Source of the DNA: Escherichia coli | Lineage (GTDB): Bacteria > Pseudomonadota > Gammaproteobacteria > Enterobacterales > Enterobacteriaceae | Assembly (NCBI RefSeq): GCF_024502345.1 | Contig: NZ_JALDNN010000001.1 | Length of the DNA: 64,000 bases | Reading direction: 5' to 3' (one strand) | The notes under the pieces: generated by a model | Databases searched by the model: none | The model's input: only the letters and a program-made list of their open reading frames with translations | What the model was told of the DNA's origin: nothing | Program-made: the position numbers and the translations under genes | Shown: one piece after another, positions 988-47,327 of the stretch | Position numbering within the stretch: the stretch's first letter is position 1 | Layout: each line of letters starts with the position of its first letter

Positions 988-1049
988 CTTATCTCCAGTC
1001 AATCCATGCTGTTGTTAAAAAAGCCGCCTGGCTGGCGGCTTAGGAAAGT

Positions 1050-1274
1050 TTACACCTCTTTGACGCTCTCCTGCTGCAGGATTTTGAGCATCTCATCTTT
1101 TAACTGTAGCTTTTGTTTTTTCATGCGGACCACTTCCGCATTGTACCCTCGACCGTCGGAACCTTCCTTTCTGGCAATTTCATGATCAAGTTTATTGTGT
1201 TTATCGAACAAGGACATAAAGCGAGGATTTTCGTTTTTCAGACGGGATATTAAATCTCGGTATTCTGGAAACAT
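1050..1274 (-). CDS. ydcH: Small DUF465 protein YdcH
   Basis: 74-aa product MFPEYRDLISRLKNENPRF... from the Met two codons inside the listed ORF. Confidence 0.75.
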   Translation of the reverse strand: MFPEYRDLISRLKNENPRFMSLFDKHNKLDHEIARKEGSDGRGYNAEVVRMKKQKLQLKDEMLKILQQESVKEV

Positions 1275-1413
1275 ACGCACTCCCTGTTAGTGGCTGACAA
1301 GGTGTATCTGAAATACACACCATCAGATTACTCATTTAACTTAGGGAAAAATGCGAGCGGGATCGTGTTTAACCAGACGGCACCTCCCGAAGAAGGTGCC
1401 GAAGAAAAAACGA

Positions 1414-3069
1414 TTAACTCATCACGCGGTCGTCAACATACTGACGTTTATCCGGCGCTGGCGGAAAATACTGATACAGCCATGTTTCACTGATAGCGTC
1501 CCCCTGACAACGTAGATACATCCGCATATCGACCGGATCAGTGGAGTCCGAAGTCGGATACCAGTCAAACTGAATACGATAACCATCGATGGGTTCAATA
1601 TAGAGAATTTCGATTTGCTTCGCTTCCCCACTGGAAAGCGTAATCACCGGCTCAATGCCTTTTGGCGCGGCAGCTTTCAGATCACCACCAACGAAATCGA
1701 CGGCAAAACGACGCGCCCATTTTTCGGGATAGTGTTCACCTGGCGCCCAACCTTCCGGGAAACCGCCCATGCCGGTACGCGTCGCCATAACGCGCGCTAA
1801 TGGGCAATGAACAGGCGGTTGCGCACTCCAGTACAGACGATACTGGAATGCAAACTCATCACCTGCTTTTACAGCTTTTTCTGGCTGCCAGAAGCAGACA
1901 ATGTTATCCAGCGTTTCGCCCGTTGTTGGGATTTCCATCAGGCCGATGGTGCCCTTACCCCACTTGTTACGCGGTTCCACCCACAGACTTGGGCGTTTGT
2001 TATACCAGCCCATAATGTCCTGATAATGGGAGAAGTCACGATCCAGTTGCAATAAACCAAACCCTTTCGGGTTGTTGTCGGTGTAAGCATTGAACTGCAA
2101 TTTTTGCGGATTATTCAGCGGACGGCAAATCCACTCGCCGTTGCCCCGCCACATGGACAGACGATCAGAGTCATGAATTTGCGGATGAATTGTATCGCAC
2201 ATCCGACGTTCATTAGTACCGCAGCTGAACATACTGGTCATCGGCGCAATGCCCAGCTGTTTAATGTCTTTGCGCGCATACAGGTGATTTTCCACATCCA
2301 TAATCACCTGACTTTTCTCACAATGGATAGTGAACTTATAGGCACCAGTAATGCTGGCGCTATCGAGCAACGCATAAACGGTAAAGGTAGTTGCCCCCGG
2401 TTTTACCGTATCAAACCAGAAGGCGGTAAAGTCGGGGAACTCTTCTTTACTGTCGGTGTAAGTGTCGATCGCCAGGCCGCGGGCCGACAAACCGTATTGA
2501 TATGTATCATCAACGGCGCGGAAATAACTCGCGCCGAGAAATGATACTACATCACGGCGCGCCAGTTCGGGGGCTTTAAACACGCGAAAACCGGCAAAGC
2601 CGAGATCGCTTTGCCCTTCTAATTGTTTTGTATCAACACCCGCATCGTTGTATTTGAACAACTCCGGGCGAAAGTGAATTTCACGCGCCAGATGTGTTGC
2701 TGGATCTACAGAAAACATACGAACGCGGCGACGGAATCCCATTCCCATATGGAAGAACTGAGCGTCCAGTTGACGGTTCTCAACGTTATGCCAGAGCGAT
2801 TTTTCGGCGTCGTATTGAATACTGTTATAAGCCTGCGGCGTCATTGTCGCCAGCGTGTCAGGTAACGGACGAGGCGCACCACGCCACGCTGTTTGCGCTA
2901 AGTCGTGCGCCATTGACTGTAGAATGGAGAAGTCAAAACGCTGGGTTTGCCCGTCGGCAATATCAGAATCTGCCGCGAATGCCGCCTGAGAAAAAAGAGA
3001 AGCAATGCCGCTGGTACCGCACACGGCGGCCATAGCCATTGAACCTTTAATAAATCGTCTACGATCCAT
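1414..3069 (-). CDS. opgD: Osmoregulated periplasmic glucan biosynthesis protein D, Tat-exported
   Basis: 551 aa; N-terminal twin-arginine signal [18 protein letters not shown]...AFA; MdoG/MdoD family. Confidence 0.9.
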
Positions 3070-5814: not shown

Positions 5815-7455
5815 TCACACCGTAGCGAAACTAACTTGTTCACCCGCTCCGCGAGGTTCTGCCGACACAGAATGTTTGTTCAGACGGAATACGTCCACCG
5901 CCTCAGTTAATCGTGCCGCCTGTTCTTCAAGGGACACCGCCGCTGCTGAGGCCTCTTCTACCAGAGAAGCATTCTGTTGCGTCACCTTATCCATTTCAGA
6001 AATCGCCTGGCTAACCTGAGTTATGCCTCTACTTTGTTCATCCGAGGCGGCGGCGATTTCCTGCATGATATGTGTGACACTCGCGACGGCATCAACAATA
6101 GTGCTCATGGTTTTCCCTGCCGTTGCCACCTCATCCGACCCCAGGTCAATTAACCTGACTGATTCACTGATCAAGCCTTCAATCTCTTTCGCCGCCTGAG
6201 CGCTGCGGCTTGCGAGTGTCCGTACTTCGCTGGCGACAACGGCAAATCCACGCCCTTGCTCACCCGCTCGCGCGGCTTCAACGGCAGCATTCAGTGCCAG
6301 AATATTCGTCTGGAAAGCAATACTGTTGATGACGGCGGTGATCTCAGAAATTTTCTTCGAACTCATAGAGATAGCACCCATCGTTTTTACTACCCCGGAA
6401 ACCGTCTGCCCGCCATCGCTGGCTTTAATAGAAGCCTCTTGCGCCAGTTTGCTGGCATGATGCGCGTTATCCGCATTCGGTTTCACCGTCGCAGTGAGTT
6501 GCTCCATGCTGGCGGCAGTTTGTTCGATAGCCGCCGCTTGTTCTTCGGTGCGAGATGAAAGGTCCGCATTGCCAGCGGAAATTTCGCTGGTGCCACGATA
6601 AATCTCTTCCGCACCCTGTCGAACAGTCCCTACGGTCATCCCCAGTGAATGCTGCATTTGCTGTAAATGACGACTTAAGCGACCGATTTCATTACGACCC
6701 GCCGGTTCATCCTTCATCGTCAGATCGCCACTAGCGATTTTTTCAATCCGTTGTGCGGCATGTTGCAGTGGACGAATGACGATCCGACGTAGCACCATAA
6801 ATGTTATCAGCGTCATGACCAGGGCAAGCACAAACGCGCCAATCATGAACATCCCACCCAGGCGGGTGCGCTGATGGGCCAGTTCCGCCAGTTGGTTGGC
6901 TCTGGTGCTACGTATCTTAACGGCTTTGTTCAAAATATCGGTATAAGCATTATCCAGCGGTCGGATCTGCTCACTTTCATGATTGATAATCGCTTCAAAC
7001 ATGCCATTTTTGGCATATTTCAACATAGGTTGCATACCCGTGATATAAGCCTGAAAGCGTTGATTTAATTCAGTGTCGAGGGCTTCATCAGCAGGTGTTT
7101 TCACCGGCCGATTCTGATAAGCACGATACCCTTGCTGCGACTGTTTAATCTCCGATTCGGCTTGCGCAATATTTCGCTTCATTGCTTCCATTTCCGCAAT
7201 ACGACTCGCAGCCCCGGCCTGAATCATATTGATCCGGGCTGAACGCAAAAAATCTGAACTGTTCGCCAACCCGGTCCGAATCTCAATCTCCGCAGTAACA
7301 TCACGCTGATCGCGATCGGCCTGCCAGAGGAAATAGCCAGCCAGAGCAGAACTTAATGCGAATAGAACTAAGATACCGCCAAGAATGCAGGCAAATAACG
7401 GAACCAGCCTGATGTGATGCAAAAAACCTAATCGCTGTGAGGGAGTTGTATTCAT
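5815..7455 (-). CDS. trg: Methyl-accepting chemotaxis protein III (ribose/galactose sensor)
   Basis: 546 aa; two transmembrane segments, HAMP and the highly conserved MCP signalling domain. Confidence 0.9.
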
Positions 7456-7521: not shown

Positions 7522-7795
7522 TGACCAAAAACCTCTTTGCGTCACATTTTTACAACAATTATTGCAGAGAAAATTAATGCTATTGGAATGAAGAGAGTAA
7601 CGAATGGCTAAACTGGCTAACCCGAATGACGAAAAATTCTGGAAAACAGCACGCAATTTCGTGAAGTGATTATTTTCGTCCCTAAGGAAACCTCATAGGA
7701 TGCCTGCGGGTGCCTGAGACTTTCTGTTTTCAGGCTAACCGGGAATCAGAAAGACGAAGGCCCCGACCGATATTTCTATCAACCGAGGCCAACGA

Positions 7796-8003
<208 letters not shown>

Positions 8004-8074
8004 GGGCAAGCGCGGGGATTTTCCCCGCGCATCTGACTAGCAGATTCATTTTCTCATGGCACCCCTTTTACACT

Positions 8075-8248
8075 TCAGTTAGTGCATGTTTTTTTCGATG
8101 CACTAATAGAACCATCATTACAGACAAATTTGCCGCCTGCCGTACAGTGTGAGATCCCCCCTTTCGAACCAGAACAGGGTTTGCGCCCGGCATCGGCATA
8201 AAAGGAAACAAGCGTTCCCATAAACAAAATAAGTGCCAGTTTTTTCAT
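8075..8248 (-). CDS. ydcA: Small secreted protein YdcA
   Basis: 57-aa product MKKLALILFMGTLVSFYADAGRKPCSGSKGG... with a signal peptide; below the ORF-track length cutoff. Confidence 0.7.
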   Translation of the reverse strand: MKKLALILFMGTLVSFYADAGRKPCSGSKGGISHCTAGGKFVCNDGSISASKKTCTN

Positions 8249-8418
8249 ATAACCTCCATGGTTTATCGAATCTTATGTTCGATTTGAACGTTATACGCTG
8301 GTTTATTTTGATACCGTTGATGAGATCAAAGATCGGGTGAATTGATTAAAAATAAGCCAGATGGACGTATGGGCAAGGATTATGGTTTTATTTGTCATAC
8401 AAATAAATATAATAGGCG

Positions 8419-8483
8419 CTTCCGATGTAGACCCGTATTCTTCGCCTGTACCACGGGTCGGTTTTAGTACAGGCGTTTTCTTT
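8419..8483 (+). ncRNA. rydC: RydC small RNA (Hfq-dependent pseudoknot sRNA)
   Basis: DNA CTTCCGATGTAGACCCGTATTCTTCGCCTGTACCACGGGTCGGTTTTAGTACAGGCGTTTTCTTT matches the remembered RydC sequence and ends in a T-run, next to cybB. Confidence 0.7.
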
Positions 8484-8492
8484 AAATATTCT

Positions 8493-9023
8493 TCAGGAAC
8501 GTTTACGCGGCATCATGCGTAGAAGTGTGTTGTCCTTCCAGAAATAGTGGTGTGCCAGTGCAGCCGCAGCGTGCAAACCGATGACAAAATATCCCAGATT
8601 CGCCAGCGTTTCATGCCACGACTTTAAGCTATCTACCCGTTCGAAATTGGCCTCTGAAGCGTAAGGCATCGTCAAACCAAACGCAAACCACGGGTTGCCC
8701 CGGTTATACATCATCACCAAACCAATCACTGGCAGCGCAATAAACAGGAGATAAATCACCAAATGTCCCAAATGCGCCAGTCCCGTCATCATCGGTTTCG
8801 GCTTAGGTATAATCGGCGGGGTTGGGTATTTCAGTCTTAACAAAAGACGAACCACCATCAGCACGAGAATTGAGATGCCACAGGAAACATGAATCATGTT
8901 GATGAGCGGCCGTTCGCTACGTGGGAAGAAACCACGAAACTCCATTGCGCAATACGCTGCGATAACCAGCAAAAAGACCAGCCAGTGAATGCCGATTTGT
9001 AACCTTGAGTATTTATTTTCCAT
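8493..9023 (-). CDS. cybB: Cytochrome b561
   Basis: 176 aa from the internal Met MENKYSRLQIGIHWLVFLL...; multi-pass membrane protein. Confidence 0.85.
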   Translation of the reverse strand: MENKYSRLQIGIHWLVFLLVIAAYCAMEFRGFFPRSERPLINMIHVSCGISILVLMVVRLLLRLKYPTPPIIPKPKPMMTGLAHLGHLVIYLLFIALPVIGLVMMYNRGNPWFAFGLTMPYASEANFERVDSLKSWHETLANLGYFVIGLHAAAALAHHYFWKDNTLLRMMPRKRS

Positions 9024-9211: not shown

Positions 9212-10213
9212 ATGAGTAAAGTTGGTATTAACGGTTTTGGTCGTATCGGTCGACTGGTGTTGCGTCGATTACTTGAAGTCAAAAGCAACATAGACGTTGT
9301 CGCTATTAATGATCTCACTTCTCCAAAAATTCTCGCCTACCTGCTCAAACATGATTCAAACTACGGACCGTTCCCCTGGAGCGTTGATTTTACGGAAGAT
9401 TCACTTATCGTTGATGGGAAAAGTATCGCGATTTACGCCGAAAAAGAGGCTAAAAATATTCCGTGGAAAGCGAAAGGGGCAGAAATCATTGTCGAATGTA
9501 CTGGCTTTTATACCTCCGCCGATAAATCGCAGGCGCATCTTGATGCTGGTGCGAAGAAGGTGTTGATTTCCGCTCCTGCCGGTGAAATGAAAACTATCGT
9601 TTATAACGTCAATGACGACACTCTGGATGGCAACGACACCATTGTTTCCGTGGCGTCATGCACCACTAACTGTCTTGCGCCGATGGCCAAAGCCTTGCAT
9701 GACAGTTTCGGGATAGAAGTCGGCACGATGACGACCATTCATGCCTATACTGGCACCCAGTCACTGGTGGATGGCCCACGTGGTAAAGATTTACGTGCTT
9801 CACGCGCAGCGGCAGAAAATATCATTCCCCACACTACGGGGGCGGCAAAAGCCATTGGTCTGGTGATCCCGGAACTGAGCGGCAAACTGAAAGGTCATGC
9901 GCAACGCGTGCCGGTGAAAACAGGTTCGGTCACTGAACTGGTATCGATTCTCGGAAAAAAAGTGACTGCCGAAGAGGTGAATAACGCACTTAAACAAGCA
10001 ACCACCAATAACGAGTCATTTGGTTATACCGATGAAGAAATAGTCTCTTCCGATATCATTGGCAGCCATTTCGGTTCAGTGTTTGATGCCACGCAAACGG
10101 AAATTACCGCCGTGGGCGATTTACAACTGGTGAAAACGGTCGCCTGGTACGATAACGAATATGGCTTCGTCACGCAGCTTATTCGCACCCTCGAAAAATT
10201 CGCTAAACTCTGA
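9212..10213 (+). CDS. gapC: Glyceraldehyde-3-phosphate dehydrogenase C, intact 333-aa reading frame
   Basis: Full-length GAPDH with NAD-binding [10 protein letters not shown] and the catalytic SCTTNCLAP motif; uninterrupted. Confidence 0.9.
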
Positions 10214-10255: not shown

Positions 10256-11695
10256 TTAAGACTGTAAATAAACCACCTGGGTCTGCAGATATTCATGCAG
10301 GCCATGTTTACCATCTGCGCCGCCAATACCGGATTTACGCCATCCGGCGTGGAAGCCTTGCATAGCTTCGAAGTTTTCACGGTTGATGTAAGTTTCACCA
10401 AACTTCAGCCCTTTAATGGCTTTCATCGCGACGTTCAGATTTTGGGTATAGATTGATGAGGTCAGGCCGTAATCACTGTCATTAGCCATTGAGATAGCAT
10501 CTTCCAGCGTGTCAAATGCGACTACCGGCAGAACCGGGCCAAAGGTTTCCTCATGCATAATCGACATTTCCTGGCGAACATCCAGCAGCAATGTCGGCGG
10601 ATAATAATATCCTTTCCCCTCTACCGCTTTGCCACCCAACGCCACTCTCGCCCCTTCTTCTACTGCGCGCGCCACTTTTTGCTCGACCCTTTCCAGCGCC
10701 GCGGCGTTAATCAACGGCCCCATCGCAATGTCGTTGCGTTCAGCGGGGTTACCAAATTGAACCGCCTGCATCGCTTCACCCAGCCGATTGACGAACTGAT
10801 CATAAATGCCTTTCTGTACATAAACACGTTCTGCACAGTTACACACTTGCCCACTATTAATGACGCGTGAATCAACGATGGCTTTGACTGCCAGTTCAAG
10901 ATCGGCATCGTCCATTACGATAGCTGGTGCTTTACCCCCCAATTCCAGACACACTTTGGTGATGTTTTTCGCCGCAGTCGCCATGATCTTCTCACCTGCA
11001 GAGACGCTGCCTGTCATACTGACCATTGTGACCTTTGGGTTACCCGCCAGTTCTTGCCCAACGGTTTCACCACGCCCCAGTACAAGGTTAAACACGCCGC
11101 GCGGAAGGCCTATTTCATCGACGATTTTGGCGAATGCAATCGCATTGTTTGGCGTAAATTCACTAGGTTTAATGACGATGGTATTACCGGTCAAAAGAGC
11201 GGGAGCCATTTTGCGGGCAATGAGGAAGAACGGGAAGTTCCACGGCAGAATGCCGGTAGTCACACCAAGCGCACGTTTAAACAAAAGAATATTTTCTCCT
11301 GGACGATCGCTTTGAATAATCTCGCCCTCGTAACGCCGTGCCCACTCCGCCATGTAATCGATATAGTCGGCAGTAAAAGCCACTTCGACTTCAGCCAGCT
11401 GCTGGATCTTGCCCCCTTCTTCAACAATCAGCGCACTGATTTCACTGGCGCGTTCGCGGATCCCGGCGGAGATTTTGCGCAACCAACTGGCGCGTTCAAT
11501 AGCAGGCAACGCTTCCCATTCTGGTTGTGCACGTTCTGCTGCATCGATTGCCTTACGGGCATCCTCGGCCTGACCATCGGGTATGCGGGAAATGACAGCC
11601 TCTGTAGCAGGGTTTACCACATCAATCCATGCGTCTCCACGCCAGGTAACAAACTGTCCATCGATATACATAGGATGTTGAACGGGTACTGACAT
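10256..11695 (-). CDS. aldA: Lactaldehyde dehydrogenase (NAD-dependent aldehyde dehydrogenase A)
   Basis: 479 aa, MSVPVQHPMYIDGQFVTWRGDAWIDVVNPATE..., aldehyde dehydrogenase family. Confidence 0.9.
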   Translation of the reverse strand: MSVPVQHPMYIDGQFVTWRGDAWIDVVNPATEAVISRIPDGQAEDARKAIDAAERAQPEWEALPAIERASWLRKISAGIRERASEISALIVEEGGKIQQLAEVEVAFTADYIDYMAEWARRYEGEIIQSDRPGENILLFKRALGVTTGILPWNFPFFLIARKMAPALLTGNTIVIKPSEFTPNNAIAFAKIVDEIGLPRGVFNLVLGRGETVGQELAGNPKVTMVSMTGSVSAGEKIMATAAKNITKVCLELGGKAPAIVMDDADLELAVKAIVDSRVINSGQVCNCAERVYVQKGIYDQFVNRLGEAMQAVQFGNPAERNDIAMGPLINAAALERVEQKVARAVEEGARVALGGKAVEGKGYYYPPTLLLDVRQEMSIMHEETFGPVLPVVAFDTLEDAISMANDSDYGLTSSIYTQNLNVAMKAIKGLKFGETYINRENFEAMQGFHAGWRKSGIGGADGKHGLHEYLQTQVVYLQS

Positions 11696-38779: not shown

Positions 38780-38808
38780 ATGCTCTGGATAAGGATTATC
38801 CAATTCTA

Positions 38809-38917
38809 AAAAAAAGCCCGGACGACTGTTCGGGCTTGTCTTTTTATATGTTGGAAAATCAGTGGCAATGCAATGGCCCAACAGAAAATAAAATCTGTGA
38901 CAATAAAGGCATATAAC
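38809..38917 (-). ncRNA. micC: MicC small RNA (porin-regulating, Hfq-dependent)
   Basis: The minus strand reads GTTATATGCCTTTATTGTCACAGATTTTATTTTCTGTTGGGCCATTGCATTGCCACTGATTTTCCAACATATAAAAAGACAAGCCCGAACAGTCGTCCGGGCTTTTTTTT, matching remembered MicC; divergent from ompN and sharing a bidirectional hairpin with the ydbK 3' end. Confidence 0.8.
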
Positions 38918-39144
38918 CCGCGCAGAATAACGTATAGAAAATTAAAAGTATAATTTTTATTTTGTATGTATTATCTTCGATACATTCACCAGACTTATTA
39001 TCATTTCAGAAGAATTATTTGATTAAGGTTTTACTTAAGGCGTAACAAATGATATTTATCGGCTAACTGAACTTCTCCTTTAGGATGTTTTCACTCCCCG
39101 GAATGGGGATAAAAGGCAAATAAAATAACTAAAGGATTTATTCA

Positions 39145-43726: not shown

Positions 43727-43848
43727 AAAAAAAAGCCGACTCATCAAAGTCGGCGTCGTACGAATCAATTGTGCTATGCAGTAATTCAAAAAAGGAAGTA
43801 AGACAATATGGAGCGCAACGCCCATCGCTTGACGTTGCATTCACCTGC
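43727..43848 (-). ncRNA. fnrS: FnrS small RNA (FNR-activated, Hfq-dependent)
   Basis: The minus strand reads GCAGGTGAATGCAACGTCAAGCGATGGGCGTTGCGCTCCATATTGTCTTACTTCCTTTTTTGAATTACTGCATAGCACAATTGATTCGTACGACGCCGACTTTGATGAGTCGGCTTTTTTTT, matching remembered FnrS, with a terminal hairpin and T-run. Confidence 0.8.
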
Positions 43849-46998: not shown

Positions 46999-47283
46999 GT
47001 TACATCCTCCCGCAATTAAGAGCGCGATATGATAACCAGACCGGGTCGGTCCAACAACGTATTACCCAAAATTCCAGTAATAAGTTCCAAATATTGCCGA
47101 TATTTTAAGCAAAATGCTTATGCATGATTATTCATTCACGATATTAATAATGTAACTTATATTTTCGTGAAATCTGTCACTGAAGAAAATTGGCAACTAA
47201 AGGTTAAAACCGTTATAACACAGTCACCGGCGCAGAGGAGACAATGCCGGACTTAAGACGCGGATGCACTGCTGTGTGTACTG

Positions 47284-47319
47284 TAGAGTCTGGCGGATGT
47301 CGACAGACTCTATTTTTTT
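47284..47319 (+). terminator. Strong plus-strand hairpin with T7 run and no plus-strand CDS upstream; possible sRNA 3' end (IsrA-like position)
   Basis: TAGAGTCTG-gcggatgtcga-CAGACTCTA followed by TTTTTTT; lies in the smrA-abgR intergenic region, where both flanking genes are on the minus strand. Confidence 0.35.
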
Positions 47320-47327
47320 ATGCAGTT

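Follow-up and report, generated by a model that had tools for sequence, protein, structure and literature searches.

The + strand of positions 8419..8483 is almost certainly the gene of RydC, a 65-nt Hfq-dependent trans-acting small RNA of Enterobacteriaceae, with the regulation and the mechanism proposed below. All positions are those of the window, the whole 64-kb stretch of Escherichia coli DNA that was analysed. The identification is based on a covariance model, identity to the K-12 gene, synteny, covariation, the anatomy of the promoter and the terminator, and complementarity of the seed to cfa. RydC has been known for about two decades, and the copy found here is the same allele as the type gene, that is, an already known and ordinary one. 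Its expression, its binding to Hfq, the activation of cfa and the repression by YieP are taken from the literature on K-12 and Salmonella and would be expected to apply to the present strain as well; we infer that the pathway is active in this strain because it is conserved almost universally within the species.

Identity and genomic context of rydC

The whole window was scanned with Rfam 15 at gathering thresholds, and a match to RydC (RF00505) was obtained at 8419..8482 on the + strand, which covers positions 1-64 of the 64 in the model and reaches 92.5 bits, the gathering score being 48 (E value 5.2e-17). The preliminary description had already read this stretch as RydC, and the full-length Rfam match sustains that call. 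The sequence, CTTCCGATGTAGACCCGTATTCTTCGCCTGTACCACGGGTCGGTTTTAGTACAGGCGTTTTCTTT, agrees at 65/65 nt with the ncRNA rydC (b4597) of K-12 MG1655, located at 1491442..1491506 of NC_000913.3, and across a stretch of 161 nt around the gene the identity to K-12 is 159/161. The window and K-12 thus have in common the 65 nt, the -10 box, the convergent cybB, the divergent ydcA, the pseudoknot and the seed, whereas their flanks differ by two SNPs only: G8394, which is A in K-12 and falls inside the YieP palindrome described below, and T8490, which is C in K-12 and falls in the 9-nt spacer between rydC and cybB. At the level of the species, rydC is present as a single copy in 5411 of 5426 complete E. 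coli genomes; in 4063 of the 5426 the identity is at least 99%, which for this gene means that all 65 nt are identical.

Table 1. Features of the rydC locus, in window coordinates.
Feature	Position	Strand	Remarks
trg	5815..7455	-	K-12 feature mapping
sokB	7750..7806	-	K-12 feature mapping; hokB type I toxin-antitoxin locus
mokB	7796..7963	+	K-12 feature mapping; hokB locus
hokB	7854..8003	+	K-12 feature mapping; type I toxin
yncP	7981..8049	-	K-12 feature mapping
ydcA	8075..8248	-	57-aa predicted periplasmic protein, divergent from rydC; 100% identical to K-12 b1419
Candidate YieP operator	8390..8404	.	Motif match; palindrome ATTTGT-CAT-ACAAAT (ATTTGTCATACAAAT), -29..-15 of rydC
-10 box of sigma-70 rydC promoter	8408..8413	+	TATAAT (-11..-6); from sequence
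rydC	8419..8483	+	Complete 65-nt sRNA gene; RydC nt 1-65, nt n = window 8418+n
5' seed	8421..8431	+	RydC nt 3-13; pairs with cfa mRNA 5' UTR
S1 5' arm	8430..8436	+	nt 12-18, GACCCGU; 7 Watson-Crick pairs with nt 35-41
S2 5' arm	8443..8451	+	nt 25-33, CGCCUGUAC; 9 Watson-Crick pairs with nt 49-57; also terminator stem
S1 3' arm	8453..8459	+	nt 35-41, ACGGGUC; pairs with nt 12-18; G37 and G39 present
S2 3' arm	8467..8475	+	nt 49-57, GUACAGGCG; pairs with nt 25-33
U-rich 3' tail	8476..8483	+	nt 58-65, UUUUCUUU; read from sequence; T-run
cybB	8493..9023	-	Cytochrome b561 / superoxide oxidase, convergent with rydC; K-12 mapping; TGA stop 8493..8495
gapC	9212..10213	+	Intact; K-12 feature mapping
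aldA	10256..11695	-	K-12 feature mapping

The K-12 features were placed on the window by BLAST, and the gene order trg-sokB/hokB-yncP-ydcA-rydC-cybB-gapC-aldA is common to both. The hokB locus together with yncP (7750..8049) shows 97.6-98.7% identity to the K-12 features. Between the 3' end of rydC and the cybB stop there are 9 nt (8484..8492), in agreement with the 10 bp given for these convergent genes in the preliminary description, which had correctly noticed the terminal T-run (TTTTCTTT at 8476..8483) and the presence of ydcA and hokB beside rydC; the interval of 7.75-8.5 kb carries six annotated small genes. It had also supposed that ORF-based annotation leaves 7.8-8.5 kb empty, and this holds for the RNA genes, which are missing, but not for the proteins, as RefSeq/PGAP has CDSs for hokB, yncP, ydcA and cybB. 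Among the records inspected, rydC and sokB are annotated only in the curated K-12 record. In none of the 12 non-K-12 records listed is a feature annotated where RydC matches, and no ncRNA is annotated across the stretch in the nearest genome, that of E. coli O18ac:H14 strain 873.10 (99.9% over 1.5 kb). Filling the rydC and sokB gaps in RefSeq records outside the curated K-12 record would need, for the records inspected, a covariance-model pass. With regard to other species, cybB adjoins rydC in most of them and the gene flanking the 5' side of rydC varies by species (PMC11340327).

Further observations concern the rest of the neighbourhood. The match to the Rfam model 'sok antitoxin' (RF01794), at 7708..7859, is on the + strand, in sense with the leader of the hokB/mokB mRNA, and stops at the hokB ATG. 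The K-12 sokB maps inside this match on the opposite strand, where there is a terminator-like hairpin too (7790..7759, -); thus, a strand taken from Rfam would mis-strand SokB. The hokB/sok cassette is tandemly duplicated in two homologous loci, L008 (E. coli E69, 1600..2400) and L010 (E. whittamii, 990..1790), the duplicated cassettes having two Rfam sok matches and two HokB matches about 500 bp apart, and is single-copy in the window; an extra Hok-family toxin is listed in some E. coli genomes (H9, H10). On the other side of cybB, gapC is an intact ORF of 333 aa, a type I GAPDH in the annotation of the nearest genome, and K-12 gapC is the pseudogene b4493, with one gap in the alignment. Full-length Rfam matches were also found in the window for MicC (38800..38920, -, 125.3 bits), FnrS (43731..43848, -, 134.8 bits) and McaS (47226..47321, +, 117.6 bits). 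McaS and RydC are both reported to repress csgD, and FnrS is reported to repress the translation of yieP, so that the window holds, about 35 kb from each other, two RNAs of the FnrS-YieP-RydC-cfa circuit.

A pseudoknot with compensatory changes in S2

All 16/16 pairs of the two helices of the RNA, S1 (7 bp) and S2 (9 bp), are Watson-Crick in the window. The helices interlock as an H-type pseudoknot: the loop of S2 contains the 3' arm of S1, and that of S1 the 5' arm of S2. S1 is the helix in the Rfam consensus structure, S2 is the helix of both the MFE and the centroid structures, and the energies calculated for each of them separately are -10.5 kcal/mol for S1 and -13.8 kcal/mol for S2. Nested MFE folding recovers S2 only. 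The MFE of the single sequence (-14.4 kcal/mol, z = -0.69) is no better than that of shuffled sequences; such a poor z-score is expected because nested folding cannot score a pseudoknot, and the result is not counted as evidence either way. The predicted terminator is formed by the S2 stem followed by UUUUCUUU, and it is missed by a generic terminator scan, as its loop has 15 nt and the limit of the scan is 8. The same scan also flagged a hybrid hairpin at 8444..8458 (+), GCCTGT-ACC-ACGGGT followed by CGGTTTTAGT, which combines part of the 5' arm of S2 with the 3' arm of S1 via G-U pairs. This hairpin may simply reflect the rules of the scan, and would otherwise be no more than an alternative fold competing with the pseudoknot.

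The elements described for the complex with Hfq can be located in the sequence. The crystal structure of Hfq with RydC, together with mutants of the pseudoknot and of the UU steps, has been published (PMC4337610). In that work the loop UU steps U23/U24 and U46/U47 contact the rim of Hfq, the U tail, which is the T-run of the terminator, is bound in the proximal channel or face of Hfq, and the double change G37C/G39C disrupts the pseudoknot and destabilises RydC in vivo (PMC4337610); in places its residue numbers appear to be shifted by one relative to the E. coli RNA. The window has the loop UU steps as U23 U24 and U44-U47, and positions 23, 24, 45 and 46 are invariant in the alignment of homologues.

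Homologues were recovered by two scans. In the genome collection, the pattern TATAAT-N4-7-seed-N11-CTT gave 8 true loci and 10 chance matches, the true loci belonging to E. albertii, E. whittamii, several Escherichia lineages and Citrobacter amalonaticus. This pattern was too strict and missed lineages with a TATACT -10 box. The metagenome scan, designed to leave out the E. coli allele, gave 5 true loci and 1 chance match. The -10 box of the metagenome relatives L026, L028, L029 and L030 is TATACT, not TATAAT, which is the reason why the genome-scan pattern missed them. All the true homologous loci pass the Rfam gathering score, with 65-91 bits, and in all recovered homologous loci rydC is flanked by a cybB homologue with 82-94% protein identity. 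The chance match of the metagenome scan, L027, scored below the gathering score and was left out of the alignment. The alignment contains 11 distinct, related sequences, with Salmonella and Klebsiella not among the recovered homologues.

In the 11 sequences 176/176 helix cells pair, whereas sliding the 3' partners by 1-3 columns lowers the share to 26-46%. Double-sided compensatory changes are found in 4/9 pairs of S2, namely G26-C56 to A-U, U31-A51 to C-G, A32-U50 to G-C and C33-G49 to U-A. They amount to 13 cells, a number reached by 0/500 shuffles, although this control overstates the significance with only 11 related sequences. S1 varies by G-U wobble only, A13G giving a G-U pair and A35G, in strain WL297, a U-G pair. 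The seed (nt 1-12, CUUCCGAUGUAG...) is invariant in 11/11 distinct homologues; the search patterns fixed nt 1-10, most of the 5' arm of S1 and part of the 5' arm of S2, and the invariance there is partly by construction. In the recovered homologues from outside Escherichia the seed and S1 are unchanged and S2 is kept through compensatory changes. Compared with RydC of Salmonella and other Enterobacteriaceae, the likeness extends to the 5' seed, the S1/S2 pseudoknot, the loop UU steps, the U tail and the activation of cfa, whereas the top of S2 and the loops vary between genera.

The same stems could be taken for the 3' end, or a bidirectional terminator, of the convergent cybB instead of an independent RNA gene, given that the element starts 9 nt past the cybB stop and that the stems would form in a cybB-sense transcript as well. 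On the cybB strand, however, neither stem has a U-run after it, and read that way the structure does not qualify as a canonical intrinsic terminator; the reading as a bidirectional cybB terminator was rejected on this ground. A consensus -10 box, a repressor box and a T-run all belong to the + strand. Moreover, L026, L029 and L030 conserve rydC even though cybB has there a GC hairpin and T-run of its own, between the two genes, and the best-conserved part of the element, nt 1-12, is the single-stranded seed and not a stem. An independent RydC transcript (a + strand RNA of about 65 nt in K-12 and Salmonella) and its binding to Hfq have been published (PMC4337610, PMC11340327). In the light of these data it is extremely improbable that the hairpins belong to cybB and not to an RNA gene of their own.

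Equally hard to credit is that the conserved sequence encodes part of a small protein. Two + strand ORFs overlapping rydC, 8361..8522 (53 aa) and 8342..8467 (41 aa), do exist mechanically, in a locus rich in genuine small proteins (ydcA, hokB and yncP), but the homologous frame is interrupted by stops in C. amalonaticus and in two metagenome relatives, L025 and L029, the RNA of L025 contains two separate 1-nt insertions, the substitutions are compensatory between helix arms and not codon-like, and the promoter and TSS as mapped lie downstream of the ORF start. The coding reading of both ORFs was ruled out by the stop codons and the 1-nt indels of the homologues.

Pairing with cfa and proposed mechanism

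The genes cfa, hfq and yieP are located outside the window, and the pairing of the seed was computed on the K-12 cfa and complemented by the conservation of the target in the population. RydC nt 3-13 pairs with positions -109..-99 of the K-12 cfa mRNA through 11 bp, 10 of them Watson-Crick and 1 G-U, with an energy of -17.7 kcal/mol (RNAduplex). This duplex spans the reported RNase E cut between G-100 and A-99; cleavage by RNase E in the cfa 5' UTR between -100 and -99 has been described (PMC6755755). Shuffled seeds pair as well with the cfa UTR in 9/500 cases, the complementarity being modest support when taken alone. The target segment is found in 5422/5426 E. coli genomes.

This pairing is in line with the published activity of RydC. 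The 5' end of the Hfq-bound RNA pairs with the long isoform of the cfa mRNA, which has a UTR of 212 nt, masks the RNase E site and counteracts Rho-dependent termination, leading to more cyclopropane fatty acid synthase, and rydC mutants are sensitive to acid (PMC6755755, PMC11340327). Weaker targets reported for RydC are yejABEF, csgD, pheA and trpE (PMC11340327).

For the present strain we propose that rydC would be transcribed from a sigma-70 promoter with a consensus -10 box, which YieP would normally keep almost silent. The transcript would end at the S2 stem and UUUUCUUU and would fold as an H-type pseudoknot with the first dozen or so nucleotides single-stranded. Hfq would then hold the U tail and the loop UU steps, presenting the 5' seed, which on cfa would mask the RNase E cleavage site and counteract the Rho-dependent termination. 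The larger amount of cyclopropane fatty acid synthase would result in cyclopropanated membrane lipids and consequently in survival of acid and membrane stress. ArrS, an RNA which also acts on the cfa 5' UTR, has this mechanism in common with RydC but not the membership of the family: its sequence is unrelated and lacks a pseudoknot, and it is encoded antisense to the leader of gadE and induced by acid via sigma-S and GadE.

Promoter, candidate YieP operator and the cybB strand

Upstream of the consensus -10 box there is no recognisable -35 box, and a consensus scan requiring both hexamers finds no promoter there. The published account of this promoter is the same: 'perfect -10 box ... no obvious -35 box' (PMC11340327). 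In this region, 8390..8404 forms a perfect 6-3-6 palindrome, 3 bp short of the -10 box. The reverse strand of this site, ATTTGTATGACAAAT, fits the YieP ChIP-exo motif atTTGTaTGAcaAAT (PMC7642389) at 15/15 positions, and the site is the sole one in the window which matches the motif with 0 mismatches. A box at exactly -29..-15, with 0-1 mismatch, is found in 14/15 of the recovered RydC promoters, against a divergent sequence further upstream; only the short contig L028 departs from this, with a degenerate box of 6 mismatches. The box of L026, L029 and L030 has intact half-sites around an inverted centre, ATG in place of CAT. The conservation of the box is not by construction, because the box was absent from the search patterns.

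YieP is a GntR/FadR-type repressor which represses rydC about 20-fold in E. coli and 7.5-fold in Salmonella, as shown genetically (PMC11340327). A study by ChIP-exo and RNA-seq chose rydC and ydcA among six candidate YieP-regulon operons for functional tests (PMC7642389), and one ChIP-exo study did not have rydC in the YieP regulon, as noted in PMC11340327. Neither a gel shift nor a footprint of YieP on the rydC promoter was found in the literature searched, and PMC11340327 reports no operator. Judging from its match to the motif, its position and its conservation, 8390..8404 is likely the operator behind the known repression of rydC by YieP. Binding of YieP to this site would occlude the spacer and the -35 region, thus blocking the RNA polymerase. 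The box could also serve as an operator shared by the divergent rydC and ydcA promoters, the ATG of ydcA being 142 bp away.

At window position 8394 both K-12 and strain E69 have A instead of G, a mismatch in one half-site. The perfect-box allele of the window appears to be the one of the E. coli majority: a 47-nt promoter query gave megablast matches in 4127 genomes, 3869 of them at 99% identity or more, a frequency which is an indirect estimate since the K-12 allele cannot seed a 28-nt megablast word with this query.

The perfect box bears on a further reading, according to which rydC of this strain looks intact but is functionally dead, for instance permanently silenced or devoid of a target. 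Under laboratory conditions, hardly any RydC can be detected in the wild type (PMC11340327), and a perfect YieP box, against one mismatch in K-12, could mean tighter repression. The RNA is nevertheless 100% identical to the functional K-12 gene, with the -10 box intact, and the perfect-box allele appears to be that of the E. coli majority, at least 3869 genomes matching the promoter query at 99% identity or more by the same indirect estimate; besides, the cfa target segment is nearly universal and purifying selection is evident across genera. There is barely any chance that the gene is dead here.

The orientation of the genes around rydC raises another issue. Downstream of cybB, ydcA is co-oriented with it (both on the - strand), and rydC lies between them on the + strand. 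With this arrangement, and with no U-run terminator on the cybB strand, read-through from cybB would carry a perfect 65-nt complement of RydC. A role of such a read-through as a cis-antisense sponge, or as a source of transcriptional interference on RydC, perhaps combined with a YieP box shared as an operator by rydC and ydcA, is an unlikely but conceivable addition to the regulation proposed above; no paper describing either the read-through or antisense effect on RydC or the shared rydC-ydcA operator was found in the literature search. If true, it would tie the availability of RydC to the expression of the superoxide oxidase CybB.

What the present analysis adds to the known RydC is the exact placement of the YieP box, the difference between K-12 and the common allele, and the omission of the gene from automated RefSeq annotation. 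The one-mismatch box hints that repression may be slightly leakier for the laboratory allele of K-12 than for the common one. The box at -29..-15 provides a concrete, testable candidate operator for a repression so far shown only genetically.
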